Program-made: the position numbers and the translations under genes
The notes under the pieces: generated by a model
Told to the model about the DNA's origin: nothing
The model's input: the letters and a program-made list of their open reading frames with translations, nothing else
Database searches by the model: none
From: Nitrospinota bacterium
GTDB taxonomy: Bacteria; UBA8248
Assembly: GCA_046581755.1 (NCBI GenBank)
Contig: JAYGFR010000100.1
Coordinates: 1-20,873, forward strand
Direction of reading: 5' to 3'
Length of the DNA stretch: 20,873 nt
Shown here: positions 109-20,111 of the stretch, piece by piece
Layout: each line of letters starts with the position of its first letter
How positions within the stretch are numbered: position 1 is the first letter of the stretch

Positions 109-1842
109 TCAGCCCCCGCCCGCGGGGCGCCGTGCAAGGGGAGCCTCATCTTTTCGCCGAAGCGCAAAAATTTCGCCCGTTATGGGCATATTGTGTTCGG
201 TCCTCAAAATTACCTCATCGGATATTTCCACAGAGAAACCGTGGGCCGCGGCCATTCTTTTGATGTATGCAGCAGAGTGCGCGAACCGCGCCGACGGGCG
301 GAGGATATAGCTGTCTCCCTCGGCGTGCTCGGTCGAGAAGGCGAAAATGCCCTCCCCGCGCAGCGTATCCCGGCACCCGGCGAATACCTGGTCGAGATTT
401 CCCACATATACGAACACATCCGATGCGAGGATGAGGTCGAAAGCGCCTTTTTCCCCGCGCAACGACTCAGTGATATCGCCAACGATGAGATCCTCGTAGA
501 TGCCCCGCTCCCGGGCTTTTTCGATCATGCGCGGCGAGAGATCCACGCCGATCAAGGCGGAGGCCATGTCCCGAAAATGGGGTCCGCATAATCCTGTGCC
601 GCAGCCCAGGTCGAGAATCCGCAAGCCCTCTTTTCCGCCCGCCAGACGCCCCACAGCATCCCGAAGCATCTGGGGTCCTTTAAATTGAAGAATTTCGGTT
701 AGATGCCGGTCAAACCGTCCGGCGCACTTATCGAACAGTTTGGACACGTACTGATCGGGAGCGGCATCGGGGAGCCCGCCAATGCATGCCGCCAACAGAT
801 GCCGTATCTCGGCGTCGCCGGGCTGAATTTGCAGGGACGCCCGGTAGCACTCCGCCGCCTCATCGTATTTTCCCTGCCCATGCATGACCACTCCGATGAT
901 ATTGTGCGCGTCGGCATTGTTTGGATCAATTTCAAGCGCCCGGCGGCACAGGTCAATCGCCTCATCGAATCGATTCTGATCGTTGAAGTGAATCCCGAGG
1001 TTGGTGTGCGCTTCCGCATTATGGGGTTCAATTTCGATGGCCCGTTGGAAGGAGACAGTTGCCGCACCCCAATCGCCCTTTCCTTTGAGGGAGATTCCAA
1101 GATTGTTGTGAACGGCGGCGTTGTTGGGTTCGATCTCGATGGCCCGTTCGTAGGAGGCGATCGCCCCACTCCAATTGCCCTGTCTTTTGAGGGAACTTCC
1201 GAGATTGCTATGAACGTCGGCATGGTTCGGGTCAATTTCAAGCGCCCGGCGGCAAAGGGCAATCGCTTCATCGATTTTTCCTTGAATCGTCAACACGCCC
1301 GCCAGGTTGCTCAGCGCCTCGAGCCCGTCCGGATTCAGGGCCAGGGAATTATTCAGGGCTGCGGCGGCCTCGTCCAGCCTTCCTCCAGCCTGATGAACCA
1401 GGCCCAGGTTGGTGTGGTAATGGGGGGCTGCGGGGTTTTGCTCGACGGCCCGGGAGATGAGAGAGAGGGCCTCTTCCAAGTCTTGTTTCTGGAAAGCGAT
1501 GACGCCGAGAAAATGAAGCGCATCAGCATGGGCGGGATCGAAATCTAATATTCGCCGGTAGAGTGGTCCCGCCCGATCCATCTGACCCGCTTGATGGAGC
1601 TGGATGGCCTCCTCAAATAGCCTGGAAACATCGGCCGGGTCCCCGGGTTCCGCCATCCGGATTTTATCCGGGGCCTGCTCCCCCTTGAGGATTTCGGCGC
1701 AGGCGCATTTCGCTCCGGCAAGGTCCCCTTCCCGGAGTTTGTTTCCGGCCGATACCAGGGAGGTTCCGGTGCTGGGAGCCATTTGAGAAGAGGGCGCCTT
1801 TTGCCGCCTCTCGCGTATGGCCCGGTTTTTCCCCTTTGCCAA
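109..1842 (-). CDS. TPR-repeat protein with C-terminal class I SAM-dependent methyltransferase domain
   Basis: About 8 TPR repeats (e.g. AIALCRRALEIDPNHADVHSNLG) are followed by LFDxxAxxFDxHL, ILDLGCGTGL, GVDLSPRM, FDLILASDVFVYVG and RFAHS. The start is placed at TTG 1842 because GAGGAG lies 7 nt upstream; the ORF track extends to 1899. Confidence 0.85.
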   Translation of the reverse strand: MAKGKNRAIRERRQKAPSSQMAPSTGTSLVSAGNKLREGDLAGAKCACAEILKGEQAPDKIRMAEPGDPADVSRLFEEAIQLHQAGQMDRAGPLYRRILDFDPAHADALHFLGVIAFQKQDLEEALSLISRAVEQNPAAPHYHTNLGLVHQAGGRLDEAAAALNNSLALNPDGLEALSNLAGVLTIQGKIDEAIALCRRALEIDPNHADVHSNLGSSLKRQGNWSGAIASYERAIEIEPNNAAVHNNLGISLKGKGDWGAATVSFQRAIEIEPHNAEAHTNLGIHFNDQNRFDEAIDLCRRALEIDPNNADAHNIIGVVMHGQGKYDEAAECYRASLQIQPGDAEIRHLLAACIGGLPDAAPDQYVSKLFDKCAGRFDRHLTEILQFKGPQMLRDAVGRLAGGKEGLRILDLGCGTGLCGPHFRDMASALIGVDLSPRMIEKARERGIYEDLIVGDITESLRGEKGAFDLILASDVFVYVGNLDQVFAGCRDTLRGEGIFAFSTEHAEGDSYILRPSARFAHSAAYIKRMAAAHGFSVEISDEVILRTEHNMPITGEIFALRRKDEAPLARRPAGGG

Positions 1843-2060
1843 TTTGCCGCTCCTCAAGCGTCGGTGATGGCGGCCACCGGCTCCCCAATCTTTCCTCATG
1901 AATAGGGCCGGGCGCCAATCATCGCTCTCTCAATCCCGGAATGAGGCCATCGCCGGCGGCATGGGCCACTCCAGGCAGGCGCCACGAGATTCGCTCACAG
2001 GGGACATGATTTGGGGCCGAATTCACGCCTCCCCCCCATGGCGGGAAACCACCGGGCCGC

Positions 2061-2489
2061 TTACGATTCGGCGGCGTCAAGAATCCGAAATTGAATCGGA
2101 AGATCGTCGCTGACGATTTGGGCCGCCTTCCGGACATCGGGGTTAAACAGGAGCGGGCCCTTGAGATTGGCCGTCATCAGTTGGGGATCTTCGGGAATCG
2201 TTACAATGGCCAGGGCCTGGTAATTTTCCGGCGAATCGATCTCGAGCGAGGCGGCCAAATCCTCCGAAATATCGAAAACGATGTCCGGAACCAGCCATTT
2301 TGGCTCGATGACAACAAAGGCCAATTTTACATTATCGAGGGACTGAAGCCACTGGAAAGGCTTTTTTTCCTCATCTTCGATCAAAACGAAACGCTTGAGG
2401 TCCGGAAGGCCGATGAGGCCTTCGGGGAAATCGATTATTTCTTCGTCGGATACTTGTATTTTTCCGAAAAGAGACGTTTCAATCTCCAT
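2061..2489 (-). CDS. fliW: Flagellar assembly factor FliW (CsrA antagonist)
   Basis: MEIETSLFG, IIDFPEGLIGL, FQWLQS, LAFVVIEP and MTANLKGPLLFN are hallmark FliW motifs. The gene overlaps the csrA 3' end; ATG 2489 has GAGG upstream. Confidence 0.93.
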   Translation of the reverse strand: MEIETSLFGKIQVSDEEIIDFPEGLIGLPDLKRFVLIEDEEKKPFQWLQSLDNVKLAFVVIEPKWLVPDIVFDISEDLAASLEIDSPENYQALAIVTIPEDPQLMTANLKGPLLFNPDVRKAAQIVSDDLPIQFRILDAAES

Positions 2490-2736
2490 CACCGCCTCTT
2501 CCAGAACGCATTCTGCTCCATAGGTCTGCCGCATTTTTCAGCTCCTGGGCGTCCACCCGAGAGGCCCGGTTGTTTTCTTCTTGAATCTTGTCGAATATTT
2601 CTCCGCGGTAGATTTTCGTATCGGCGGGCGCATCCACACCGATACGGACCTGGCGTCCCTTAACGTCCACGACCACCACGCGGATTTTGTCTCCCACCAT
2701 GATGGTTTCGTCGACTTTACGGGTAAGAATAAGCAC
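2479..2736 (-). CDS. csrA: Carbon storage regulator CsrA (long-tailed, FliW-partner type)
   Basis: (M)LILTRKVDETIMVGDKIRVVVVDVKGRQVRIGVDAPADTKIYRGEIFDKIQEEN. GTG start at 2736 with GGAG upstream. Confidence 0.95.
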   Translation of the reverse strand: MLILTRKVDETIMVGDKIRVVVVDVKGRQVRIGVDAPADTKIYRGEIFDKIQEENNRASRVDAQELKNAADLWSRMRSGRGGDGD

Positions 2737-2862
2737 GAGCCAATTCTCCAGTGCCGGGCTGCGGTGATATTCGTCGATTCCCGAAGAAAACCTCCTGTCG
2801 GCCGAGAAACTACACAATGAAACCCATGCGCACAAGGCGCACCGTTTAAAAACATCTTCCCG

Positions 2863-5733
2863 CTACCGAATAAAATCCAACAAGCTGAGCTGAAGAATTT
2901 TCGCCGTCGAGGCAAACGCGGCTTCAAGCGTCGTTTGAAATACCGAAAACTCCGTAATGGCCTGGGTGAAATCCGTATCCTCTTCTTTGGACAGAATTTC
3001 TGCGAAGGCCAGGATCACCTCCTCGTTCCGGGCGCTGATCCTCTCGAACTGACGGACCACCTCGCCCACGATCACCTGCTGCAGGCCAATTCGGTCGAGG
3101 GTGGCTGTGAATTCATCCAACGTCTTCTGGATGGTATCCCCATCATTCCGCAATAGCGCCTCCCCCAACACATCAAGGAGTCCGACCAGATTGTTCCCCC
3201 CCTGGAACCCCAGGTCGCGGACCGAGGAGCCCGTGATATCCGTCAGCAGCGCGCTTGAATTCCCATCCCTCGAAGCGAGCTTCAGGTTTTTTCCATCCGC
3301 GCTGATCGTGGCCTCCGCATTCGCGGTAGTATTTTCCGAAATGGCTTTTAAAATGTCGCTCACAACGATTTTCGAGCCAAGGTCCAGATCGATTTCCGCG
3401 GCTCTCACCTTCACCGTTCCCAGCCGAACGCCCGCTCCGTCCCTGAGCGCCGATACCGCCGTTTCGGCGGATACTTTCGGGTCCATATCCCGGCCCGTTA
3501 TATTCCCCGGAATATTCGCATCGATTCCAAGATCAAACGCCGTGGTCGTGCCCCCCACATCCTTGACGATGAGGTTGGACACGATGGGAGAATTCGAATC
3601 CGTCAGGATCAGCCTTTTCCCGTCGGCCCCGATCGTCACCTTTACACCCGTGACCGCCGCCTCGATTTTCGTGATGACATCGGTGATATCGGCTGCCGTG
3701 GAGAGATCGACCGTAAACGTCGCCCCGGCCCGGTTCGTGATTAATATCGAGCCGGACCTAACGCCTTTTCCGCCATTCAGGTCCGTGAGGCGGGTGGATT
3801 TCGACGCGACGAGCGTTGCCCCGTTCAGGTTGAGCGTGACAAGAATGTCCTGGGCCCCGTCGGGGGTCAGAGCGATCGAGGAACCCGCACCCACGCTGGG
3901 CGAAGTGACCGTGAAGCTGTCCTTGAACGACCCGTTGTAATCGACCTTCGCCCCGGTGAGGTTCGTGTCCGATGTGACCGAGGTGCTGAAGGGGGATGTC
4001 GCCGAAAAGCCCAAAAGAGAAGCCAGGTCGCTCTTTGTCACATCCACGCCCACCGAAACGGCCGGGTTGTCTTTTGTGATCGTAAATTTATCCGTCGCGG
4101 CGGTGTAAACCACCGTATACCCTACGGCCGCACCCGCGGCGGTTGCGCCCTTCAGCGTGGTGGAGGCATTGATGAGGGTTTGCAGCTCCGAAGCGATGGC
4201 CGCGCCGGTTCTCGTCCCCGCCACGATGGTGAATGTCTCCGAGCGAGCTCCGCCGTCTTCGAGGATCGTGATGGTGTTATTGGTGGCCGGAATTTGCTTC
4301 ACGTTATTGTTGATGGTGAGTTCGATATTGGAGGCCAGGGATTCGCCCGTGAACACCCCAGGGCCGATGGTGATGACCGTGCTGCCTCCGCCGTCCACCG
4401 CGACGGAAAATCTGTCGTTGGCCCCGGCAAGGACGTTGAACGCCACTGCCGTTGAAGAGGTGGACGATTTCCCCTGGAGAGAGTCCGCCGAGAAACCAAA
4501 TGCACTGGCGGCGGTGCTGGCGGCAGCCGTCCCCACGCTCAAAACCTGAAAGTCGGTCGCGCCGGTCCCGGACCGGGTGAATTTAAACTGGTCGGCCGCG
4601 CTGTCGTAGGTGACTTTGGTTCCGGTGAGCGCCTCGTCCGTTACCGTGGAGAGCGATGGAGTCGAGGGCTCCTTCGTGAAGCCCATCAGCGTCCCCAGCG
4701 CCCCGTCGGTGGAGGCCACGCCCACTCTGACGGAGATCGATTCCGTCCCGCCCGTAATGGTGAACTCATCCGTCGCGACATTGTAGGTCACAGCATATCC
4801 AGTCCCGCCCGCGGCGGTTGCGCCCCTCAGCGCAGTGGATGCGTTAATTGCCGTTGCAAGCTCGGTGGCAAGAACGGCCCCCGTTTTGACTCCCACTCCC
4901 ACGTTAATTGTGTCGGTTGCTTTTCCGCCTTCCTCGATAATGGATATTGAGCTGTTGGTGGAGGTCACAACCTTGATAGTGTTGTTGATTTTAAGTTCGG
5001 CCTCGGCGGCGAGCGCCGCGCCACTACGCGTACCCGCCGCAATCGTGACGGTGGTGTCCGTCACCACGGGCTGCTGACCCCGGATGACGAGCTGATTGTT
5101 CGTTCCGTCTATGCGGAATTCATCCGTCACCGGCGCCGTGCCCTTGATGAAAGCGGAGGTTTGAAAAATATCCGGGTCGAGGTCCGTGGACAAAAAGCTC
5201 GAACCGGCGACGTTGATGGCGTTCGCTTGGCCGATCCCCACATTCACGTTGACCTTGCCCTGATTGCCCTGATATTCCCCGCTGCTGTTATAGGCGGCGG
5301 TGGCTATATCGGTGCCCGAGAAGATAAAGCGCTCCCCGACCTGGGTATTCGCCAGTTGGATGATGCTATCGCGAATACTCGATATCTGCACGGCCCCGCC
5401 GGCCCGGGTAACGGAGTCCGCAGGGGCCCCGGCCTCTTGAAGACCGATAACCCGCGCCTGGACGACCAGGTCGCGGATCTGCTGGAGGGTCTGATCGGTG
5501 ACGTTGGAAAAGGCGGTGCTTCGCGTAATATTTCGGGTGAACTGGTTGCTGTCGGCAATGATTCGGCGGAGGTTCAGGATTTTCGAGAAGCTGCCCGGAT
5601 CGTCCGATGCCTTCCGGACGCGCTTTCCGGTGACGATATCCTCCTGAACCTCCAGGACACGCCTCTGGGTCGTACGGATGGCGCTTTGGGCAATCCGGAA
5701 GCGCTGCGCCGTCGTGATTTTCGTATTGCCCAT
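2863..5733 (-). CDS. flgL: Flagellar hook-associated protein 3 FlgL, unusually long (956 aa)
   Basis: Flagellin-like N-terminus (TGKRVRKASDDP; LANTQVGERFIFSGT; YQGN) and C-terminus (EDTDFTQAITEF...QLSLLDFIR). Lies directly downstream of flgK. Confidence 0.9.
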   Translation of the reverse strand: MGNTKITTAQRFRIAQSAIRTTQRRVLEVQEDIVTGKRVRKASDDPGSFSKILNLRRIIADSNQFTRNITRSTAFSNVTDQTLQQIRDLVVQARVIGLQEAGAPADSVTRAGGAVQISSIRDSIIQLANTQVGERFIFSGTDIATAAYNSSGEYQGNQGKVNVNVGIGQANAINVAGSSFLSTDLDPDIFQTSAFIKGTAPVTDEFRIDGTNNQLVIRGQQPVVTDTTVTIAAGTRSGAALAAEAELKINNTIKVVTSTNSSISIIEEGGKATDTINVGVGVKTGAVLATELATAINASTALRGATAAGGTGYAVTYNVATDEFTITGGTESISVRVGVASTDGALGTLMGFTKEPSTPSLSTVTDEALTGTKVTYDSAADQFKFTRSGTGATDFQVLSVGTAAASTAASAFGFSADSLQGKSSTSSTAVAFNVLAGANDRFSVAVDGGGSTVITIGPGVFTGESLASNIELTINNNVKQIPATNNTITILEDGGARSETFTIVAGTRTGAAIASELQTLINASTTLKGATAAGAAVGYTVVYTAATDKFTITKDNPAVSVGVDVTKSDLASLLGFSATSPFSTSVTSDTNLTGAKVDYNGSFKDSFTVTSPSVGAGSSIALTPDGAQDILVTLNLNGATLVASKSTRLTDLNGGKGVRSGSILITNRAGATFTVDLSTAADITDVITKIEAAVTGVKVTIGADGKRLILTDSNSPIVSNLIVKDVGGTTTAFDLGIDANIPGNITGRDMDPKVSAETAVSALRDGAGVRLGTVKVRAAEIDLDLGSKIVVSDILKAISENTTANAEATISADGKNLKLASRDGNSSALLTDITGSSVRDLGFQGGNNLVGLLDVLGEALLRNDGDTIQKTLDEFTATLDRIGLQQVIVGEVVRQFERISARNEEVILAFAEILSKEEDTDFTQAITEFSVFQTTLEAAFASTAKILQLSLLDFIR

Positions 5734-5759
5734 TTCCTACCGCTCCTCCAGACTCACCT

Positions 5760-7529
5760 TCATCTGATGATATCGATTACCTGCTGCAAAAGGTCGGTAA
5801 TCGTGGAAATTACCTTCGCGCTCGCCGCGAAGTTTTGCTGAAACAGGATGATGGTCACCATCTCTTCGTCGATCGATACGCCAGACACCTCCTCGCGGTT
5901 GGTATTCAGGGCGTCTTTTACCTGGCTGGTGACTTCCTGGCGGTCGGTAATGTTTCTGCTCAGAGAGCCAAAATTTGAAATAATTCCGTTCATGAAATCG
6001 CTGATCGTCGCCGTATTCCGGCCCGCAACGACATCCCCCCGCAGGTTGGCGAGTTTCAGGACGTTGGCGTTGTCTCCCGGGGAGCCCGGTACGCCGGCCG
6101 TGGCGATTTTACTGATGTCGGCCGCAAGGAGGTTGTTGAAGGCGAATTTCTTGGCGGCCCCCGTGCGGACGGAAACGGTGAAAGAATCCCCTGTTTGGGG
6201 GTCGCCGCTGAATTTTTGAACGACGATCCGGATTCCCTCGAATTCGGCCGTCACCGATCCGCCGGTAAAATTAAACGTGGTGACCGCCGGGTCCGTTCCC
6301 AGGGGACCTCCGTCAATCGACACCTGGGTGGCATTGAGCTTCTGGTTCGTGTCCGTGTCGGTGATGGTAAAGGTTGTCGAGGACGTAAATTCGAGTTTGT
6401 AATCCGCCATCGTGAGCGCCGTTGCGTCGAATATTTTTGAATTCGACAATACGGACTGTACATTGGGGTTGCCCGTCGCCACGTCCTTGCTGTTTGAACT
6501 GCCCCCCTTGAGGCTGACCTTAAGGGGCTGGAAAAAGTCCAGGTTGGTACTTCCGTCCAGGCCGAAACCCTGTTTATGGATGATGTTGACTTCGTTGACG
6601 ATGGTCGCCGCGATGGTGTTGATGTCGTCGAGGAGATTTTTCAGCGTCGTATCCCGGAATTCGAGCAATCCCCCGATTTTGCCGTTCGTAATCCGCGAAG
6701 AGATATCGATTCGCACATTACCCCGGTCTTCGAATAAAACGCGCTGAAGGGCAACCGGCGGCGTGTTCCCAACCACGTTGTTGGGGTTTTGCTCTCCAAC
6801 GAGTTTGTTGAATATTCTTTGTGAAACCAGGGGCGCACTTCTGCCGACGAAGATCAGCAATGAGCCGTTCGTCTCTTCAATAACGTTAACGTCCACTCGC
6901 TCGGAGAGATCCTCGAGAATTCGCCGGCGCTCGTCGCGAAGGTCGTTTTCGGTGTCTCCGCTGGCCTCGCCCACCAAAATATCGGAGTTTAACCGTGCGA
7001 TGCGCTCCGCAAACTGGTTCACCTCGTCGATGGCACGGGTGATATTCCGGTCGGCCCCGATCTGCAGGTCCTCGACCGCTTTGCCCAGGCGGTTGAACTT
7101 TTCCGCCAAAATTCCGGCCGCGTTGACCAAACCGTTTCGCTCGGCGGCGCCTTCGGGCGTGGTGCCTAAATCCTCGGCCGCCGCGAAGAATTTATTGATG
7201 GCGCCGGCGATTCCGCCCTCGGTTCCGGACTCGTTCAGGAAGGCTTCGGTGGCCAGGACTCCACTGGCCTGGGCGCTGAGGGAGCCGTCCTCGGATTTAA
7301 AGCGTGCTATTTGAGCGTTCAGGAACCGGTCCACTACCTGGCGGACCGTTTCGAGACGCACGCCGGTGCCAATAAATCCCGTCACCGGCGGATTATTGAC
7401 GAGGACGACCTCTTGACGCGAATAGCCCTCAACGCCGGCATTGGCGATATTATGGGCAACCGTCTGCAATGCCGCCTGGGTGACCAGGAGAGACTCTTTT
7501 CCGATGGTCAGTGCTGTCTGAAGTCCCAT
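5760..7529 (-). CDS. flgK: Flagellar hook-associated protein 1 FlgK
   Basis: AHNIANAGVEGYSRQ, GTGV, NDLRDER, GKIGGLLEFRD, and C-terminal VSGVSIDEEM...QQNFAASAKVI. Confidence 0.96.
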   Translation of the reverse strand: MGLQTALTIGKESLLVTQAALQTVAHNIANAGVEGYSRQEVVLVNNPPVTGFIGTGVRLETVRQVVDRFLNAQIARFKSEDGSLSAQASGVLATEAFLNESGTEGGIAGAINKFFAAAEDLGTTPEGAAERNGLVNAAGILAEKFNRLGKAVEDLQIGADRNITRAIDEVNQFAERIARLNSDILVGEASGDTENDLRDERRRILEDLSERVDVNVIEETNGSLLIFVGRSAPLVSQRIFNKLVGEQNPNNVVGNTPPVALQRVLFEDRGNVRIDISSRITNGKIGGLLEFRDTTLKNLLDDINTIAATIVNEVNIIHKQGFGLDGSTNLDFFQPLKVSLKGGSSNSKDVATGNPNVQSVLSNSKIFDATALTMADYKLEFTSSTTFTITDTDTNQKLNATQVSIDGGPLGTDPAVTTFNFTGGSVTAEFEGIRIVVQKFSGDPQTGDSFTVSVRTGAAKKFAFNNLLAADISKIATAGVPGSPGDNANVLKLANLRGDVVAGRNTATISDFMNGIISNFGSLSRNITDRQEVTSQVKDALNTNREEVSGVSIDEEMVTIILFQQNFAASAKVISTITDLLQQVIDIIR

Positions 7530-7550
7530 TTGCGCTTACCGCCTATGTCT

Positions 7551-8054
7551 CTAAACCGACTGAAAAATAAAATCGCCGCCCTGAACCCTTTTTTTGCCTA
7601 ACTTCCCCTCGATGCCGTACATCGCCGGATCGGCGAACGCCGACTGAACGGAGTCCATCACCCCGTTCATGACCGAAAGAAGTTCCCCGATAATTTGGCG
7701 GTTGATCTCGTTAACCTGCTTCACCCGATCGGTCGTCTCACGAAGGCGGCCGCGTACATTCATAAATCTTTTGGCCAGCGGAGGGGGGGTGTTCCGCACC
7801 AGGTCGATGAGGTGAAGGTTTTTGGTGTCCTGGCCCTGCTCGGAGGAGAGGACGGCCATCAGCCGGGTCCGCTCCTGCTCCAGGGCGCGGATGCGGTGGA
7901 CGACCTGGGCCTTCAAACCGATTTGCTCCTCGAAATTGGCGAACTTGGGGCGGCGCAGGACTTCCCTTTCCTTCAAGAGGATTCCCTCCAAATCCTCATA
8001 GGCCTCAAATTCTTTTTCGAGTACGTCGAGAAGATTCTCCGTATGATCATTCAT
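7551..8054 (-). CDS. flgN: Flagellar export chaperone FlgN
   Basis: Helical 167-aa protein with LE..R, N..N..(II) and a C-terminal YG..G motif; immediately upstream of flgK. Confidence 0.8.
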   Translation of the reverse strand: MNDHTENLLDVLEKEFEAYEDLEGILLKEREVLRRPKFANFEEQIGLKAQVVHRIRALEQERTRLMAVLSSEQGQDTKNLHLIDLVRNTPPPLAKRFMNVRGRLRETTDRVKQVNEINRQIIGELLSVMNGVMDSVQSAFADPAMYGIEGKLGKKRVQGGDFIFQSV

Positions 8055-8514
8055 AATATCCGCTCCCCGGTTGGGTCATCTCCGGACCGCCTGCCTCCGG
8101 TTTCCCGGCCGCATTTCGGGGTGGGGCGGAATCCTCCACTTTTCCCCCGTTGGGCACCAGGTTGGAGTAGCGCCTGGTCACGTCCTCCTTCCGGGTCAGT
8201 TGCTCATAAATGATCTTGGACATTCCGATGCCAGTTCCCTTCGAGACTTCCTTTGAAATCGCTTCGTCGAACATGCTTTCGAACCAATCCATGCTGAGGT
8301 TCTTCTCCATCAAGCCACTCTTGGGCACGCTCTTGCGCATTTCCTTCAAAAGCCGCTGAACGAACAAGGATTCGAAATCCTGGCTGAATTGCTTTATCTT
8401 GGCATCGTCGCCGCTCGCCTTTAGGGTCTCGATTTGTTTTGACAAGGAACCGGAATTTTGGAGGGTCATGGCCCGCAAGTGTTCGGGAGATACGTTGCCC
8501 AGATTTCCAATCAT
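8047..8514 (-). CDS. flgJ: Single-domain FlgJ (rod-binding/rod-cap domain, no muramidase)
   Basis: FESLFVQRLLKEMRKSVP...FESMFDE...GIGMSKIIYEQL. ATG 8514 with AGGAG upstream; lies after flgI. Confidence 0.88.
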   Translation of the reverse strand: MIGNLGNVSPEHLRAMTLQNSGSLSKQIETLKASGDDAKIKQFSQDFESLFVQRLLKEMRKSVPKSGLMEKNLSMDWFESMFDEAISKEVSKGTGIGMSKIIYEQLTRKEDVTRRYSNLVPNGGKVEDSAPPRNAAGKPEAGGPEMTQPGSGYYE

Positions 8515-8606
8515 TTCCCGCTCTCCTCGCCGGCCACAGCTTTTGCGAGTCAACCCGGGGCCGGCACTACAGCATGAACATTATGCGATCGGGCGCTCCG
8601 CGCGCC

Positions 8607-9746
8607 TTAAATCAATTTGATTTCGGCATCCAGGGCATTGGCCCCTTTGAGCGCCTGCAGGATGGCGATCAAGTCCCGCGGCGAGACCCCAATCGCATTG
8701 AGGCCCCGAACGACATCTCCGATGCTGACGGTTTTCTGCAAAACGACCAGGCTCCGTTTCTCCTGCGTCACCGTGATCTCCGTTTTCGGGATGATCTGGG
8801 TCTGCGCCGAATCCGGCGCAAATGCCTCGGGCTGAGAGACCAGGGAGTCTTCACGGATGACAATGTTGAGATTCCCGTGACTGATGGCCACGGTTGAGAT
8901 CCGCACGTTTTCGCCCATGACGATGGTGCCCGTCCGCTCGTTGATCACGACAATGGCCTTTCGGTCCGTTACGACCTCGATGCGCTCGATCTGGGCGATG
9001 GCCTGCACCGCGTTTTTGGCGATGCCCCGAAGGTTTATATCCACCGTCCCGGAATCCCGGGCCTGGGCCACCTGATCCCCGAAAGCGCCGTTGATCGCTG
9101 TCACGACCCGCGAGACGGTTGTAAAATCCGGACTATTGAGAGCAAGCCGGATCGCCTTCTGGCGCCAGAAATTTTGTCTGATTTCCTTCTCCACGCTCCC
9201 GCCATTCGTGATGAGTCCGACGGTGGGATGATTCCGCTGAACACCGGTCCCCGTGGCTCCGGCGAACGCGAACCCGCCTCCGAGCGAAACCGCCCCTTGC
9301 ACCACGACGTAGACCTCGCCATCCACTCCCCGAAGCGGACTCAAAAGGAGCGTTCCGCCGAGGAGGCTTTTGGCATCGCCGATGGTCGACACCGTTACAT
9401 CGACTCGCGAACCCACGCGGGCGAAAGGCGGCAAGTCGGCCGTCAGCGCCACCGCGGCCACGTTTTTCACGTTAAACGAGCTTGCGGGGGTATTGATGCC
9501 GAGTTTTTTCAGAAAGCTCGACAGCGACTGCGCCGTAAAAGACGGGTCGTTTCCATCGCCCGTCCCGTTGAGGCCGACAACGAGCCCGTAGCCGATGAGC
9601 TGGTTCGACCGGACCCCTTTGACCGTGGCGATATCCTTGAGGCGGACGGCCTTGGCGGTGCCCGAGAGGAACACCATCACCCCCAAGACAAGGGCGGAGA
9701 CAATGGCGGCCAGACGGAAGCGCCTATGCCAGCGGCAAATCTGCAT
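8607..9746 (-). CDS. flgI: Flagellar P-ring protein FlgI
   Basis: Signal peptide ending AKA, then RLKDIA..GVRSNQLIGYGLVVGLNGTGD, KNVAAV, VINERTGTIVMG and DLIAILQALK. Confidence 0.97.
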   Translation of the reverse strand: MQICRWHRRFRLAAIVSALVLGVMVFLSGTAKAVRLKDIATVKGVRSNQLIGYGLVVGLNGTGDGNDPSFTAQSLSSFLKKLGINTPASSFNVKNVAAVALTADLPPFARVGSRVDVTVSTIGDAKSLLGGTLLLSPLRGVDGEVYVVVQGAVSLGGGFAFAGATGTGVQRNHPTVGLITNGGSVEKEIRQNFWRQKAIRLALNSPDFTTVSRVVTAINGAFGDQVAQARDSGTVDINLRGIAKNAVQAIAQIERIEVVTDRKAIVVINERTGTIVMGENVRISTVAISHGNLNIVIREDSLVSQPEAFAPDSAQTQIIPKTEITVTQEKRSLVVLQKTVSIGDVVRGLNAIGVSPRDLIAILQALKGANALDAEIKLI

Positions 9747-9760
9747 TTCCAAATTACCCT

Positions 9761-10552
9761 CTAGAACGGCCATAGTTTCGTAACAACGCGTGTCAGCCAC
9801 CCCGGCGACTGGGCTTCTTCGAGAATGCCGTCGCCCGTGTAGACGATTTTGGCATCCGCCATGAACTTGGATTGGATAGTGTTGTCCTGCGCTATGTCCT
9901 GCGGGCGGATAATTCCGCTCAACATGACGATCAGGGTCTCCTTTTGGGTCGTGAGCTCCTTTCGTCCCTCGATGAACAGATTGCCGTTCGGGAGCACTTC
10001 CACCACCTGGGCGGAAATGGTCGCGGTCAGATTGTCCGTCCGCTCGACATCCGTCTCGGCACTGTGATCGACCTTCGAAGTGGTCCGCAGGGCGTCGGAG
10101 GGGTCAAACCGCCTCGCCCGCGAACCGACGTTGGTGTTCGTCGGTTCGCCGTATCCCGGCAGGGACGGGACGGTAAAGGTCAGGTTGCTTTGCCTGTCGA
10201 TAGAGGTATCGGCTTCTTTCTTCGAGTTCGATGACTCGCTGATGAGCACCGTAATAATGTCGCCCACGCGGGAGGCGCGTTTGTCCGTGAAGAAAAACGG
10301 GCTTCGATCGCTCCAGAGGGAGCCTTTATCCCGCCCGTCCAGGGAGGCGAATACGCCCTTCTTCCCCGATTGGCCGGTTGGGCGCGCGGGCCGGGTCCGA
10401 CGAAACGACTGGACGCTCCGGAAGCGCTTGGAGCCCCGCGACACTGTCTCCCTTCCTCCGGCGGGCTGCCCGTTGCTCTCAGGTGCGCTCACCGCAATCA
10501 AGGATAAGGAAAGCAACGAACAACCTATCGAACGGATAATGATGAGTCGCAT
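9761..10552 (-). CDS. flgH: Flagellar L-ring protein FlgH
   Basis: GSLW, DKRASRVGDIITVLISE, VVEVLPNGNLFIEG, LSGIIRPQDI, ADAKIVYTG, C-terminal PGWL...WPF. The start is uncertain (ATG 10552 preferred over TTG 10579). Confidence 0.95.
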   Translation of the reverse strand: MRLIIIRSIGCSLLSLSLIAVSAPESNGQPAGGRETVSRGSKRFRSVQSFRRTRPARPTGQSGKKGVFASLDGRDKGSLWSDRSPFFFTDKRASRVGDIITVLISESSNSKKEADTSIDRQSNLTFTVPSLPGYGEPTNTNVGSRARRFDPSDALRTTSKVDHSAETDVERTDNLTATISAQVVEVLPNGNLFIEGRKELTTQKETLIVMLSGIIRPQDIAQDNTIQSKFMADAKIVYTGDGILEEAQSPGWLTRVVTKLWPF

Positions 10553-10562
10553 GGCAAGTACC

Positions 10563-11534
10563 CTAGAAAAGGACTTCAACGGAGGAAGCTCCTACGATAC
10601 GGGCGTGAACCGGCTTTTTCGAGTCGATGTTGATCACGCGGATCAAATCGCCTTTTCGTCCGGCGTCCAATGATTTTCCGATAGCCGTGATGGACAGCCC
10701 CCCACTGCGGGCGCTGATATGAACCAAATGCCCCCGCTTCACGAGATAGGGGAATTTGACATCCGACTTTCGAACCATGCTCCCCGGGCTGATCGCCCGG
10801 ATGGCAATTGCGCCATGGAACTCTGGCACGGATGTGATGGTATCCGAGGGCATGGAAGCCATGTCCTGCCGGCGAAACTCGAAATCGGCCGCCTTCAAGG
10901 TCTCCATGGCCCGGATTGGCCTGCGGGCAACCGGAACATCCATGTAAATGGCGATCTCGGCGGTTACCCAAATTCGGCGAATTTCGGATGCCCCTCGAAT
11001 GACCCTCAAAATCAAGGGGGTCCGCCCGATAAAGCGGGTGTTGGGCGGAGCCTGTACCGTCAGTTGAACATTCCCGCCGCCCGGCAGAAGAATTCTTTGC
11101 CTGGGAACGAAGATCGTTTTGATCTCGACATCCCCGTTCCGGTTGATCAGGCGGGAATTCAAAAAGCTCTGAACCGCGGAAACCATCTCTTGCTGATCCA
11201 ATATCCGGGTGCTGTTCCGCACCCGAACCACACGCGCCCCCGCCAGGGTGACGCCCTCGATTCCAGCATTCCGGATGGACTTGCCCACTGTTTCGCGGCT
11301 GATCCGGAAACTCATGCCCGAAGGAGGGGCGGAAGCCAGGAAAACATCCTCGAGTTCGCCCCTGATCCTGCGCGATACTTTCGATAAATTTGCCACCTCC
11401 GCCAGAAACACCTCGCCCTCGTTCACTTCGACGGATGGGATGAGGCGGATTTCCACTGCCCCGGAGATGGCGGGAGCAACGGCTGAAATCGCAACGAAAA
11501 TCGCCAGAATGATGCGCGGGATCAAGGTTCGCAT
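10563..11534 (-). CDS. flgA: Flagellar P-ring chaperone FlgA
   Basis: Signal peptide, SAF-like region (VPVARRPI...L...D), then LVKRG..V, G..L..G..GDLIRVINIDSKK. ATG 11534 with AAGGAG. Confidence 0.92.
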   Translation of the reverse strand: MRTLIPRIILAIFVAISAVAPAISGAVEIRLIPSVEVNEGEVFLAEVANLSKVSRRIRGELEDVFLASAPPSGMSFRISRETVGKSIRNAGIEGVTLAGARVVRVRNSTRILDQQEMVSAVQSFLNSRLINRNGDVEIKTIFVPRQRILLPGGGNVQLTVQAPPNTRFIGRTPLILRVIRGASEIRRIWVTAEIAIYMDVPVARRPIRAMETLKAADFEFRRQDMASMPSDTITSVPEFHGAIAIRAISPGSMVRKSDVKFPYLVKRGHLVHISARSGGLSITAIGKSLDAGRKGDLIRVINIDSKKPVHARIVGASSVEVLF

Positions 11535-11544
11535 TTTCAGCTCC

Positions 11545-12333
11545 TTATCGCTTGAGATCCGAAACTGTTCGAAGCATTTCATCGGCGGTCTGAACCGTGC
11601 GGCTATTGATTTCATAGGCCCGCTGGGCCTCAATCAGGGCGACGAGTTCATCGACGACCTTAACGTTGGAGTTTTCCACGAATCCCTGGGCGATGGTCCC
11701 GAACCCCTGCGTTCCGGGGGTTCCGGTCAAGGGAGCGCCCGATGCGGTGGTTTCGAGAAGCAGGTTCCGGCCCACGGAGTTCAAACCGGCTGGATTCTGG
11801 AATTTCACCAAGGTAAGGGTGCCAACGGTGGTGGGCGCCGTTGAGCCGGCATTGATGACCGACACCGTCCCGTCGGTTCCGATCGTAACGTTGAGCGCCG
11901 TCGTGGGAATCGTAACCCCCGGCGTAATGCGGAAGCCTTCGCTGGTCACGAGCTCCCCGGTGCTATTCACCTTGAAGGCGCCGGAGCGGGAATAAGCCGT
12001 TTGCCCGGTGGGCAGGGTGACCTGGAAGAAGCCGTCGCCTTCGATGGCGACATCCAGTTCGTTATCTGTCCGCTTGAATTCGCCTTCGGTGAAAATCCGC
12101 GACGTGGACGCGGGCCGGACGCCGGCTCCGATTTGAAGGCCCGTGGGAATCTGGTTTCCCTGGGCGGACGGCGCGCCCGCCGGAATAATGGTTTCGTAAA
12201 GCAGTTCCTGGAAATCGGCGCGCGATTTCTTGAAACCGATTGTGCTGACGTTCGCCAGGTTGTTCGCGATGACATCGACGTTGATCTGCTGGGCCTGCAT
12301 TCCCGTGGCCCCGGTGAACAATGCTCGTAACAA
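11545..12333 (-). CDS. flgG: Flagellar distal rod protein FlgG
   Basis: MLRALFTGATGMQAQQ..VDVIANNLANV, FQELLY, DVAIEGDGFFQV, QGFVENSNV...LIEAQRAYEINS. TTG start with GAGGAGG. Confidence 0.97.
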   Translation of the reverse strand: MLRALFTGATGMQAQQINVDVIANNLANVSTIGFKKSRADFQELLYETIIPAGAPSAQGNQIPTGLQIGAGVRPASTSRIFTEGEFKRTDNELDVAIEGDGFFQVTLPTGQTAYSRSGAFKVNSTGELVTSEGFRITPGVTIPTTALNVTIGTDGTVSVINAGSTAPTTVGTLTLVKFQNPAGLNSVGRNLLLETTASGAPLTGTPGTQGFGTIAQGFVENSNVKVVDELVALIEAQRAYEINSRTVQTADEMLRTVSDLKR

Positions 12334-12358
12334 GGCTCTTCCTCCTCAGGTGCGAAAT

Positions 12359-13126
12359 CTATTGAATCTCCTCGACTCGGCCCAGGTCGTTAACCGCCCG
12401 GTCATCGATCGAATCAAAGGTTTTGATTGTTTTCTGATAAGTCTCATACAGGCGGCCAATTTCAATTAGCTTCACCATCTCTGCGATGGCATTCACGTTG
12501 GAGCCTTCGATATATCCCTGCAAGATATCGGTCGATTCCGGCTTAAAGGTTGCCTGGCCGGGAACGACCGTGGAGAAGCTGGAAAAACCCCGCTTCTCAA
12601 GAGCATAGGGCTTGGGAAAATCGATGATTTGAACTTGCCCGACAACCTCGCCGTTCGAGTAAACCTGCCCGGTCTGGTTGATGAAGATTCCGCTATTTTG
12701 GGAGCTGGCATTCGGAACCCGGATTTCCCCGTTGTCCACGCCCAGCACGGGCCAGCCCTGATTCGCGATCATGACCCCGTCGCGGTTCAGCCCGAACTGC
12801 CCCGCTCTGGAATATCGGAGGCCGCCGGGCGACCTGAGAACGAAAAAACCATCGCCGTTCAGGGCAAGATCCAAGGGATTGTTGGTTTTTCTGAAGCTGC
12901 CCTGCTTGTAATTAATGTGGGTAAACCTCCAGGCCGACTGCTGCACGACATCATCGCCCAATGCGCTGCCCTGACCGGCCGTCTTGGAAGTTTTTTCAAT
13001 ACGAAACACGGGGACATCGGCCTTGTATCCGGGAGTATTCACCTGGGCCAGATTGTTCGCCACGATCTCGAGGCGCCGCTGCTGGAGCATCGCTGCGCCG
13101 ACGACTGCATAAGATCCTGGTTCCAT
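12359..13126 (-). CDS. flgF: Flagellar proximal rod protein FlgF
   Basis: IVANNLAQVNTPGYK, TNNPLDLALNGDGFF, YSRAGQF, QGYIEGSNVNAIAEM. It precedes flgG. ATG 13126 is chosen because the longer ORF start lies upstream of the sigma54 promoter. Confidence 0.9.
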   Translation of the reverse strand: MEPGSYAVVGAAMLQQRRLEIVANNLAQVNTPGYKADVPVFRIEKTSKTAGQGSALGDDVVQQSAWRFTHINYKQGSFRKTNNPLDLALNGDGFFVLRSPGGLRYSRAGQFGLNRDGVMIANQGWPVLGVDNGEIRVPNASSQNSGIFINQTGQVYSNGEVVGQVQIIDFPKPYALEKRGFSSFSTVVPGQATFKPESTDILQGYIEGSNVNAIAEMVKLIEIGRLYETYQKTIKTFDSIDDRAVNDLGRVEEIQ

Positions 13127-13216
13127 ACCGTTTACCCTTCCTGGAGAGGATTCCGAATAATCCGCGCTCTCGGACGGGACGCCTCCTCGGGGCCGGTCCG
13201 ATTGACTCATAGGAAG

Positions 13217-13233
13217 AGCAAGAGATGTGCCAG
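13217..13233 (-). promoter_or_regulatory. Sigma54 (-24/-12) promoter of the flgF operon
   Basis: The minus strand reads CTGGCAC-ATCTC-TTGCT, an exact TGGCAC-N5-TTGCW consensus, 90 nt upstream of the flgF ATG. Confidence 0.88.
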
Positions 13234-13281
13234 AGTTGCAGGAGGGAGAGGACTGCAATGCTAAATATTGTATGCTTTTAT

Positions 13282-17275: not shown

Positions 17276-17599
17276 CTATGTTACCCTAGAAGCCAATGCT
17301 GGAGGGCGGAGCAGAGCGAAGCCCGGAGGCATTGGCTCTATCGTCTCAGGCGCCGGCGGCCTGTAGCCGAGTGCGCTGTGGGGCCTGATGCGGTTGTATT
17401 CATGCCTCCACCTTTCCGCCAGCACTTTCGCCTCATCGAGCGTATCGAAGAACTCTCGGTTCAATAGCTCATCCCGCATCTTCCCGATGAAGGATTCCAC
17501 ATAGCCGTTCTCCCAGGGGCTGCCCGGCTCGATGAAGAGTGTCTCCACCCCGAGGCGTGAGAGCCACCCCCTCACCCGGCGAGCAGTGAACTCAGGGCC
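17276..17599 (-). pseudogene. IS3-family transposase OrfB, 3' fragment
   Basis: GPEFTARRVRGWL...FIEPGSPWENGYVESFIGKMRDELLN...WRHEYNRIRPHSALGYRPPAP. Confidence 0.92.
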
Positions 17600-17763
17600 C
17601 TAGTACATCACGAACGATGTCAGGATCGGTGGATGAGGCAGTTGGCTTAGAAGATGAGCCGGCGGAGCGAGCGAAGCCGGCTCATCCAAAGCGGTGGTCA
17701 TGGTTGGCAAGTGCTCCCCTAAGATGGGCTCTGCCCGACTCTCAAGCAAGAGGAGCGCCAGCC

Positions 17764-19020
17764 ATGACCCATGTGAAGTCTACCATCGAGGAGAGCGTCT
17801 TGGTCGCCATTGATATCGCCAAAGCGCGCAACCACGTTCTTATCGACCCTCCGGGCGGATCACCCCGAAAGCGTTTCAAGATGGCCAACGCAGCAAGAGA
17901 CTTCCGGGATTTTGCGGTTTACCTCAAGGGCTTCGCCCTGCCGGTTCGCGTCGGCTTCGAGGCCACGGGCAACTACCACAGGCCGCTGGCTCACTTTCTC
18001 CTGACCCAGGGCTTCGAGGTGCGGCTAATCTCTTCGGTGGCGCTGGCTAGGACCCGCGAGGCCATGCACAACTCCTGGGACAAGAACGATCCCAAGGACG
18101 CCCAGGTAATTCTCCATCTGCTCAAGGTTGGCCTGACGCAGATCTATCACGACCCGCTCTTTCGCGGCATCAACGACGCCCAGGAGCTCTCCAAGACCTA
18201 CCATCAGGTGTCCCTGGAGAAGACCCGCGTCCAGCACAGGCTTTTGACCCACTATCTGCCCTTCTATTTCCCGGAGGCGCAGACCTACCACCACTCGGCC
18301 CGCTCAGAGTGGCTGTTCCGTCTGCTCCTCGCATTTCCCATCCCGACCAGTATCCCCCGCCTGGGCGAGGAGGCGTTTATCGCCCAGGCGGGGGACGTGG
18401 TGGGCCGCAAGGTCAACAAAGCCCGCATACTGGCGGACTTCTACCGGACGGCCTTGGAATCCATCGGCCTGCCGGTGGCCGAGGACTCTCAAGCCGTAGC
18501 CATGTTCCGCCTCGTCCTGGGGGAATATCTCACCCTCTGCCAGCTGAGAGGCCAGATCGAGCAGACGGCATGCGATTTTTTCAAAGAAGATGCGGACTAC
18601 TTTCGGCTCACCCAGGTGCCCGGCATCGCCCTCACCATACTGGCCGAAGCCGGCGACCTGAGGCGGTTCTCTCACCACAGGCAGTTCCTCAAGTTCTGCG
18701 GGCTCGACCTGTCCACCCGACAGTCCGGGCGGTTCCGGGGGGCGACCAAGCTCTCCAAGTATGGCAACGCCAGGCTGCGCTCGGCGTTCTGGATGGCCGC
18801 CAGCGCCGCGGTCCGGCTGCGCGAGAACAGCTTCCGCGCGAAGTTCGACCGCTATATCCGGCACAACCCCCAAGACCCGGACCTCAAGCGCAAGGCCTAT
18901 TGCGCGGTGGCCGCCAAGGTGGCCCGGGTCGTCCATGGATTGATCAAGAACGGGACCGACTATCGCCCCTACCACGAGGAGGCGATACCAAGTGGAGGAG
19001 TCCGCTCAGGAGGGCCATAG
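17764..19020 (+). CDS. IS110-family DEDD recombinase/transposase (418 aa)
   Basis: VAIDIAK (D), FEATGNYH (E), DKNDPKDA (D,D), Tnp domain GL...QSG, SKYGNARLRSAFW, AVAAKVARVVH. ATG 17764 with AGGAG. Confidence 0.95.
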   Translation: MTHVKSTIEESVLVAIDIAKARNHVLIDPPGGSPRKRFKMANAARDFRDFAVYLKGFALPVRVGFEATGNYHRPLAHFLLTQGFEVRLISSVALARTREAMHNSWDKNDPKDAQVILHLLKVGLTQIYHDPLFRGINDAQELSKTYHQVSLEKTRVQHRLLTHYLPFYFPEAQTYHHSARSEWLFRLLLAFPIPTSIPRLGEEAFIAQAGDVVGRKVNKARILADFYRTALESIGLPVAEDSQAVAMFRLVLGEYLTLCQLRGQIEQTACDFFKEDADYFRLTQVPGIALTILAEAGDLRRFSHHRQFLKFCGLDLSTRQSGRFRGATKLSKYGNARLRSAFWMAASAAVRLRENSFRAKFDRYIRHNPQDPDLKRKAYCAVAAKVARVVHGLIKNGTDYRPYHEEAIPSGGVRSGGP

Positions 19021-19200
19021 AGGCGAATTCGACCTAGTAGACAATGCTCGGACCTTCCACTTGGGCGCGTATTTTGTTTTGAGTACGGTGAAGACCACGG
19101 CCGATACCGATGGATCTTGTGTCACTATGGTCAAGAGCGAAGCCCACAACCGGTGGAAGCCACTTGGACTGGACCACAACAAAAACGCCTCGTTCGAGGC
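18988..19200 (+). ncRNA. Putative bridge RNA / seekRNA of the IS110 element
   Basis: A stem CCAAGTGGAGG-A-GTCCG / CGGACCTTCCACTTGG encloses guides AGGGCCAT and GACAATG, which match the insertion target. A second loop with the same spacing matches the circle junction. The RNA ends are unknown. Confidence 0.75.
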
Positions 19201-19229
19201 AAGGGGGACTTGCTGACCCAAGACCGCCA

Positions 19230-19235
19230 TTGACA
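19230..19235 (+). promoter_or_regulatory. Outward-facing -35 box (TTGACA) at the IS110 right end
   Basis: Perfect TTGACA 13 nt from the end. In the circular form it lies 17 nt from TACATC (17604-17609). Confidence 0.6.
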
Positions 19236-19248
19236 CCGCAGTTAGTAC

Positions 19249-19593
19249 GTTGTCCGAGCGGATATGGCCCGGAACGCCAAGCCGGACGAAGAGTTCTGTC
19301 AGACGGTCCAGAACATCCTCGGACGTGAGCTTTCTGGCCACATCTATCGACAGACACTCCCGCGTGAACTCATCCACCACCACGAGCATCCGAACCGGGC
19401 GTCCATCCCGCGTGCGTTCCACACAGAAGTCATACGCACACACATGATTCCGTCTCTCGGGCCTCCTCCTCACGCATGAACCATCATTCAGCCAGAGCCA
19501 TCCCCGCTTGGGCTGTCTCCGGGGAATCTTGAGGCCCTCTCTTCGCCAGATCCTCTCTACACGCTTGTGGTTCACCCGCCAGCCCTCATGCCT
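19249..19593 (-). pseudogene. IS3-family transposase OrfB, 5' fragment (N-terminally truncated)
   Basis: EGWRVNHKRVERIWRREGLKIPRRQPKRGWLWLNDGSC...NHVCAYDF...VVDEFTRECL...PGHIRSDN. Confidence 0.92.
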
Positions 19594-19676
19594 TCCGCGC
19601 GTCCGAATCTCCGGGCCAGGGCGCATCCCCCCTTCAATCTCCCCCTCCCCGGCTCCGGGCCCGGCTCATGGCCGGC

Positions 19677-20111
19677 TCAGGGAAGGCAGAGCCGATCCAG
19701 CCCGATCACGGCCTCAGCCTCGATCTCGACCAGGAAATCCGGGTCCGCCAGGCGCGAAACGCCCAGGAGCGTGCTCGTCGGGGCGGGATGGGTGAAATAC
19801 TCGAATCGCACATCCTGGCAGCGGAAATACTCGTCCACGTCGGTCGTATACGTCACCGTGCGCACCACGTTCGAAAAATCCGCGCCCACGTGCTCGAGCC
19901 CCGCGCGGATGCACTCGCACACCGCGCGGATCTGGGCGCGCATATCCCCCCTGCCGATCGCCTCCCCCCCCGGCCCGGCCGCCACCTGGCCCGCGATATG
20001 GACCCGCGCATGATCGGACGCCTCGACGACGATGACAGACGAGTAAATCGGATTCCCGCCGATGACGCGGGCGAACATTCCCTCGGGCATGAGATGGTGG
20101 ACCTGGAACAT
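19677..20111 (-). CDS. RidA/YjgF/UK114-family protein
   Basis: YS, IAGQVA, GDMRAQ, VVR, R.EYF...PTSTLLGVSRLADPDFLVEIEAEAV. Strong RBS AAGGAGG. Confidence 0.9.
   Translation of the reverse strand: MFQVHHLMPEGMFARVIGGNPIYSSVIVVEASDHARVHIAGQVAAGPGGEAIGRGDMRAQIRAVCECIRAGLEHVGADFSNVVRTVTYTTDVDEYFRCQDVRFEYFTHPAPTSTLLGVSRLADPDFLVEIEAEAVIGLDRLCLP

Follow-up and report, generated by a model that had tools for sequence, protein, structure and literature searches.

A predicted bridge RNA located 3' of an IS110 recombinase gene, with guides to the catalytic-aspartate codons of IS3-type transposases

The window analysed here (the whole 20,873-nt stretch of contig JAYGFR010000100.1 from a Nitrospinota bacterium) contains an IS110 element at 17602-19248 that lies antisense within an IS3-type integrase gene, at its D-x-G codons. 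The recombinase gene is on the plus strand (17764..19020, 418 aa) and its product matches PF01548 and PF02371 as well as NF033542, the latter above cut-off. A DEDD RuvC domain is combined with a C-terminal Tnp domain carrying the catalytic serine, which places the protein in the IS110 family, and the residues D17, E66, D109, D112 and S321 were assigned from motif positions. On the minus strand the element is flanked by the C-terminal half of the interrupted integrase (17279..17599, starting GPEF; Pfam rve_3, E 2e-27) and by its N-terminal remnant (19252..19626, ending HIRSD; HTH_21, and Pfam rve with E 1e-7, just under the cut-off). Core and handshake positions are numbered here as in IS621 (PMC11208158). 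In plus-strand order the junctions consist of the left target arm, positions 1-7 (17593..17599; family junction alignment, 6/7 match to the left target guide), a left-junction core CT that the junction alignment suggests to be target-derived (17600..17601), and the element left end AGTAC (17602..17606), the right donor arm, which is complementary to the right donor guide and covaries in relatives. Family junctions likewise define the right end, with the left donor arm TTAGTAC followed by a donor-derived core GT (19242..19250, core at 19249-19250), and beyond it lies the right target arm TGTC (19251..19254), which on the minus strand is the Asp codon plus one base of the next codon. Elsewhere in the window a Mutator/IS256-like transposase starts at the contig end (20620-20873). 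We take 109-13260 together with 19677-20111 to be a flagellar cluster, its hook, rod and ring genes being named from sequence; these stretches also include a TPR-methyltransferase ORF, and a RidA-like ORF adjoins the truncated IS3.

The element is single-copy in its own genome, where our search found no intact host IS3 copy spanning the insertion site. Near-identical copies with the same flanks are present in marine runs of several studies, and in one contig from RNA run X16 the exact right end of the element continues into the D-N codons of another IS3 copy. Contigs of 8 runs yielded no circle junction or empty site of the element, an absence that proves nothing, and the joints that were found in them derive from other IS3 copies. 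The left end contains an 11-bp hairpin (17653..17686, plus strand; left-end fold z -3.5) with GCGAAGC at 17671-17677, and GCGNAGC occurs on the plus strand of 74/129 left ends against 21/129 flanks. Mini-hairpins with GNA triloops are very stable in single-stranded DNA, and this one could matter for a single-stranded circle. A long predicted stem (17696-17769) pairs the left end with the recombinase start codon and its ribosome-binding site, and similar complementarity is visible in relatives; translational repression is possible. TTGACA at 19230..19235 (plus strand) may be, from its sequence, the -35 box of a circle-junction promoter with a weak -10. The hexamers differ across the family and we rejected such a promoter as a family trait; the linear element gave no full promoter match.

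The relatives found by scanning comprise 79 loci in genomes, 80 in metagenomes and 4 viral ones, to which seven plasmid records were added; scan estimates put the clade at about 820 stretches in genome contigs and about 1,300 in metagenomes. We parsed 171 loci, of which 146 had at least one junction and distinct flanks, and 87 clade members had both junctions. The distant L084 is no clade member and was excluded from the clade counts. Protein identities were mostly 52-68% (46% for enterobacterial members), with relatives at 30%-45% identity thinly sampled. A search of the phylum matched 3/51 genomes, none in the same family besides G000. The 87 junction pairs describe a site-specific insertion about a short core, free of target duplication and terminal repeats. 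Empty sites reconstructed from them encode DNGP (40), DNGT (24), DNGS (9), DNGI (4), DNGA (3) and seven singletons, so that D-N-G-P/T/S/I targets make up 77/87. Pfam matched rve_3 in 42/43 flanks (43 were sent of 86 available, three with stops having been dropped), and some of the insertion contexts are presumably IS481-like. Across many bacteria, clade members are found inserted in the codons for the catalytic aspartate of other transposase genes. Some loci have features of their own. At L018, L088, L095, L136 and others the integrase halves on either side of the insertion seem to come from different IS3/IS481 elements, which looks like assembly collapse or recombination between copies; in L075, L078, L080 and L085 other insertion sequences interrupt the 3' RNA; and in the Bacillus and Cytobacillus relatives L177 and L178 the longer non-coding end is the 5' one. 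At L113 (2703-2715) left donor, core and right donor follow one another across the right junction, and the element lies at the left junction of a related one. This joint, a natural half-match or a tandem insertion, shows joined donor sequence in nature.

The core was A/G-T in 115/116 left junctions and GT in 113/116 right junctions of the family, and the right target arm was TGTC in 93 and TATC in 19 of 116. The first core base in the 87 insertions was G in 86 at the right junction, and G in 50, A in 36 and C in 1 at the left. Since the right base is nearly invariant and the left one variable, G19249 should be derived from the element and C17600 should be the target base. This corrects by one base the target reconstructed in the first-pass annotation, which had counted the right-junction G19249 as target. 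It also changes the reading of the guide mismatch in this copy, formerly explained as a synonymous Asn wobble (AAT versus AAC): the mismatch is A versus C at core position 8, and the site encodes D-K-G-P, the sole such case of 87. We rejected an assembly error at C17600, as contigs from two studies (runs X1 and X2) carry the same base. The D-K-G-P site is then a rare Lys variant, or else the base changed once the element was in place.

The variable left base carries information on strand transfer. In IS621 the top strands are reported to be cut after core position 9 (PMC11208158), from which a left junction with the target core and a right junction with the donor core are expected. For the first core base, left/right pairs were G/G in 50 insertions, A/G in 35, A/A in 1, C/G in 1 (the window) and G/A in 0. 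Sorting of A/G against G/A is therefore 35:0 (two-sided binomial, about 6e-11), and the protein tree has 27 changes of the left base, which makes most of these insertions separate events. With both strands exchanged across a two-base heteroduplex and segregating freely, A/G and G/A products should be equally frequent. We infer from the junction sequences that the left junction keeps the core base of the target and the right junction that of the donor, which fits top-strand (copy-out/paste-in) transfer; natural insertion scars are likely to record which DNA strand is transferred. A serious contender, which we regard as somewhat unlikely, is that the sorting has another cause: both strands could cross 3' of position 8, so that only one base acts as the core, or the reciprocal class could be lost to mismatch repair or to selection. 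Junction sequences alone cannot tell these from top-strand transfer, and bottom-strand cleavage was seen in IS621 structures (PMC11208158). Against them, the top strand of CazIS110-1 is reported to be integrated more than 1,300-fold over the bottom strand (bioRxiv 2025.10.25.684509) and IS621 to excise mainly as single-stranded circles, and a reciprocal terminal insertion would be expected to remain visible in genomes.

A target-binding loop domain (fold A; 18988..19064, plus strand) overlaps the last codons of the recombinase gene. Its outer stem (18988-19004/19049-19064, with one G.U pair and a bulged A18999), the left guide segment AGGGCCAT at 19011-19018, the inner hairpin at 19021-19035 and GACAATG at 19040-19046 all lie where they had been placed by the first-pass annotation, which found this loop but missed the donor loop and the alternative fold described below. 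The 77 nt fold with -33.3 kcal/mol (z -3.9), and 0/200 shuffles were as stable. In the minimum-energy structure of the single sequence the guides are closed up in two further small hairpins, and it is the comparative analysis that leaves the guide loop open. In 44 sequences less than 90% alike, 95.8% of fold A cells are paired, with double changes in 22/29 pairs, and slid controls reached at most 52% of cells; the inner hairpin, with its bulged A19032, has 98.5% of cells paired and double changes in 4/6 pairs. The left target guide, positions 1-9 (19010..19018, plus strand), equals the top-strand left arm at positions 2-7 and 9. On the other side of the hairpin the right target guide (19040-19045) is followed by handshake positions 19046-19047, and the segment 19040..19047 (plus strand) is complementary to TGTC 19251-19254 and the core T. 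The covarying stems and this complementarity to the junctions support the idea that a 3'-located RNA carries an IS621-like target loop, with a hairpin between a left and a right guide that point to D-N-G codons. An Rfam search gave no credible match (best E 0.12).

Downstream we found a donor-binding loop domain (19073..19135, plus strand) formed by an outer stem and an inner stem at 19091-19118, with 92% and 97% of cells paired and double changes in 9/9 pairs. Taken over the stems of both loop domains, the 44 sequences have 95.8% of cells paired and 172 double changes, an outcome reached in 0/500 shuffles by a control that ignores relatedness. Both donor guides were read from family junctions on the plus strand: AGTAC (19082-19086) of the left donor guide (19080..19089) is the right end of the element, and ACT (19124-19126) of the right donor guide (19121..19130, with one bulged base and the handshake GG at 19129-19130) is complementary to the element's left end. 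Position 5 of the left donor guide matches the element end in 107/108 relatives, and positions 10-12 of the right donor guide pair with the left end in 93/94, one of them via G.U; the donor guides of the 46%-identical L082 follow its ends as well. Counted as independent events on the tree, donor covariation amounts to little (1 change for the left donor guide; otherwise 1 of 2 and 3 of 4 pairs), and none is significant alone. Two internal loops in conserved stems are present, with the target loop complementary to both target arms, and the handshake bases of both loops pair with non-cognate DNA at position 6. The donor-loop handshake GG is found in 94/94 relatives, opposite target CC in 91/94; its G at position 6 faces the target C and not the donor A, and position 6 of the target loop is a U facing the donor A in 64/114. 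Position 7 does not discriminate, as it is C in both target and donor. When the 262-nt 3' region was shuffled 20,000 times with dinucleotides preserved, a target-guide pair of equal quality and spacing arose 152 times and a donor-guide pair 66 times, and both together 0 times; the motifs and spacings were set with the sequence already in view.

Opposite the third bases of the Asn and Asp codons, most relatives carry a left-guide G and a right-guide U. Left-guide G at position 8 faces a target A 40 times and G 65 times, and right-guide U at position 11 faces G 85, A 18 and C 1. The rarer left-guide A faces A 2 and C 1 and never G, and the rarer right-guide C faces G in 9/9 (the misparsed L169 removed), a contrast at position 11 that is not significant (p 0.15). 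This copy has the less tolerant version of both guides, A on the left and C on the right. The tolerance at the degenerate Asn codon that had been proposed for it holds for the family and fails for this copy with its A/C mismatch. Family tolerance is best read as G.T / U.G wobble pairing, by which one guide would read both synonymous codons, and IS621 is reported to have a native G.T guide pair as well (PMC11208158). The Gly third position (left guide position 5) is matched in only 45/108 and would be a tolerated mismatch. Guides that change with their target had been suggested as a test across homologues. Within the clade the test has little power because the target is constant, and covariation there is weak: left guide position 4 compared with the target gives 12/17 versus 29/91 (p 0.005, uncorrected) and, on the tree, 4.0 concordant and 0.1 discordant of 8 independent pairs (median p 0.125), and positions 1-2 do not track the target. 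Outside the clade the expected change is seen in two distant relatives, L175/L176 and L084, Paenibacillus plasmid elements with 27-29% identity and a similar 3' RNA, whose other guides match their own junctions in readings made by hand on single copies. For L175/L176 the target guides match at 8/9 and 8/8 and the left donor at 7/7, with both target-loop handshake bases; for L084 the left target guide matches at 7/7 and the right guide with one bulge. In both relatives the target and donor polarity is on the strand opposite the recombinase gene. The L175 target is an intergenic repeat, present also at L084:3262-3290.

The RNA has a 3' segment (19153..19167, plus strand), found by comparative pairing, that would support a second fold (fold B) in which 19153-19159 pairs with 19054-19060 and 19160-19167 with 18988-18995. 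These helices use the outer-stem strands of fold A, and the two folds are consequently exclusive. Fold B helices have 87.9% of cells paired and 58 double-change cells, equalled in 0/500 shuffles. The informative columns are 19155, which tracks 19058 by complement (9/9 T:A), and 19161, which follows 18994 instead of copying 19058 (5 cases); both disfavour a third repeat that is a plain duplication or a local hairpin. Which strand pairs better with 19054-19060 gave an even tally (35 vs 33). Constrained energies in the window are -69.9 kcal/mol for fold A and -68.4 kcal/mol for fold B, and most relatives favour fold A and some fold B. Fold B is absent in four lineages (L049, L059, L076 and L082). 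The four-strand repeat layout of the RNA is kept, with different guides, in the 28%-identical L173 (1919-2085), a locus at which parsing gave no firm junctions. From these sequence patterns folds A and B may act as a switch. The size of fold A matches the dominant target-only RNA of CazIS110-1.

Taken together our results make it very probable that 18988-19064 is the target loop of a bridge RNA of about 180 nt (18988-19167) that would steer the recombinase by base pairing. Guide function, expression of the RNA and programmability are predicted here from sequence; RNA-run contigs over the loop (X15 and X17, two studies) showed no discrete RNA and were rejected as expression evidence, since they also cover the ORF and flanks and give neither ends nor strand. 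In the mechanism that we consider most likely, the recombinase and the 3' RNA would be co-transcribed, the element would be copied out as a circle joining 19248-GT-17602, and the RNA would pair with target and donor as in IS621. A different division of labour seems to us improbable, namely a target-only seekRNA in which the 77-nt hairpin does most of the guiding, the protein or the same loop reads the ends, and the downstream part is precursor or accessory. Fold A is indeed self-contained at this length, short target-only RNAs are reported to dominate for ISEc11 and ISEc21 (PMC11187229), and a 77-nt target-only RNA makes up 90% of reads for CazIS110-1 (bioRxiv 2025.10.25.684509). Yet in that same preprint the target-only RNA alone supported neither excision nor integration, and in our clade the element ends and the downstream loop covary, the handshake bases of this loop facing the target. 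The full RNA may be accompanied by a short form. That the matches are relics or chance, the hairpin being a terminator or mRNA-stabilising structure and the site being chosen by the protein, is very hard to sustain even though the guides are short and a constant clade target would conserve them by plain inheritance, given four guides in IS621 geometry, the outcome of the shuffles, distant guides that change with their junctions, and a plus strand on which we found no terminator-like site in this region.

The full bridge RNA that we favour resembles those of IS621 and ISCro4 (IS622) (PMC11208160; PMC11208158; bioRxiv 2025.05.14.653916) in several reported respects: a DEDD + Tnp-serine recombinase, two loops with left and right guides in the same order and strand logic, a two-base core with an invariant T, the handshake positions, and bulged base(s) in the right donor guide. 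Unlike IS621, this clade has its RNA 3' of the gene and overlapping its last codons, a recombinase of 418 aa (315-330 aa in the IS621 branch), an R-T core with donor GT, and the extra 3' segment that enables a second fold, and it has no conserved junction promoter. The usual IS110-group layout has the RNA in the left end, and group members with a 3' non-coding region have been described, in general terms, as exceptions. A 3' RNA is shared with the IS1111 group (ISEc11, ISPa11), and the short target-only size is shared with ISEc11, ISPa11 and CazIS110-1, for which 77-86 nt are reported beside a long form. IS1111 proteins have 330-350 aa, however, their seekRNAs are reported to match the strands in reverse order compared with this RNA, and sub-terminal inverted repeats of the IS1111 type (7-17 bp) were found neither among the listed repeats nor by eye at the ends.

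IS3 targeting by IS110 elements is already published. ISEc21 and ISMch6 are reported as IS110 elements with RNA-guided insertion at the second Asp codon of IS3-family transposases (Siddiquee 2024, PMC11187229), and the ISEc21 target is thus the same codon. The two systems differ in protein (19% identity; ISEc21 has 358 aa and its cluster 345-385 aa), in the RNA (5' in ISEc21) and in the insertion itself, as ISEc21 inserts in IS3 sense right after H-S-D, whereas elements of this clade lie antisense and interrupt the codon that follows D in D-N-G. These differences, as opposed to a tree test, suggest an independent origin, and the clade is a distinct version of known RNA-guided recombination. 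PGAP names link it to ISMex12 and ISRel25, which with ISYps2 form one cluster in Durrant Supplementary Table 1 (PMC11208160); the proteins of this cluster are 57-59% identical to ours, and the ISMex12 and ISRel25 loci (L080, L081) share ends, guides and target with the element. Our literature search found no paper naming ISMex12 or ISRel25 and no description of the clade's RNA or target, though ISfinder entries and Durrant Supplementary Table 5 may list them. A 2026 preprint is reported to have modelled 32,190 bridge RNAs, and a prior annotation of this clade's RNA is quite possible.

From an evolutionary point of view, other transposons probably give the element plentiful landing sites at which insertion does no harm, and are inactivated in the process. 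One may tentatively combine all of this in a single picture, which as a whole we consider doubtful: a widespread IS110 clade would have independently become a dedicated IS3/IS481 parasite, with wobble-coded guides that, by way of codon degeneracy, read a protein motif; its 3' bridge RNA would be a two-state switch, fold A forming first and giving a 77-nt target-only guide and fold B locking both loops in a recombination-competent form; and the A/G core polymorphism would be an in-vivo record of top-strand-only transposition. For the family, our work adds a large clade of bridge recombinases in which all four guides, core and handshake can be read off, with a GT/AT core and not CT. How the core bases sort (35:0) is relevant to whether IS110 elements move one strand or two. 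Different groups have reported a short seekRNA and a long bridge RNA, and the covarying second fold provides a way, open to test, in which both forms could arise. Convergence of two lineages on one catalytic codon suggests that IS110 elements have repeatedly taken to parasitising other transposons.
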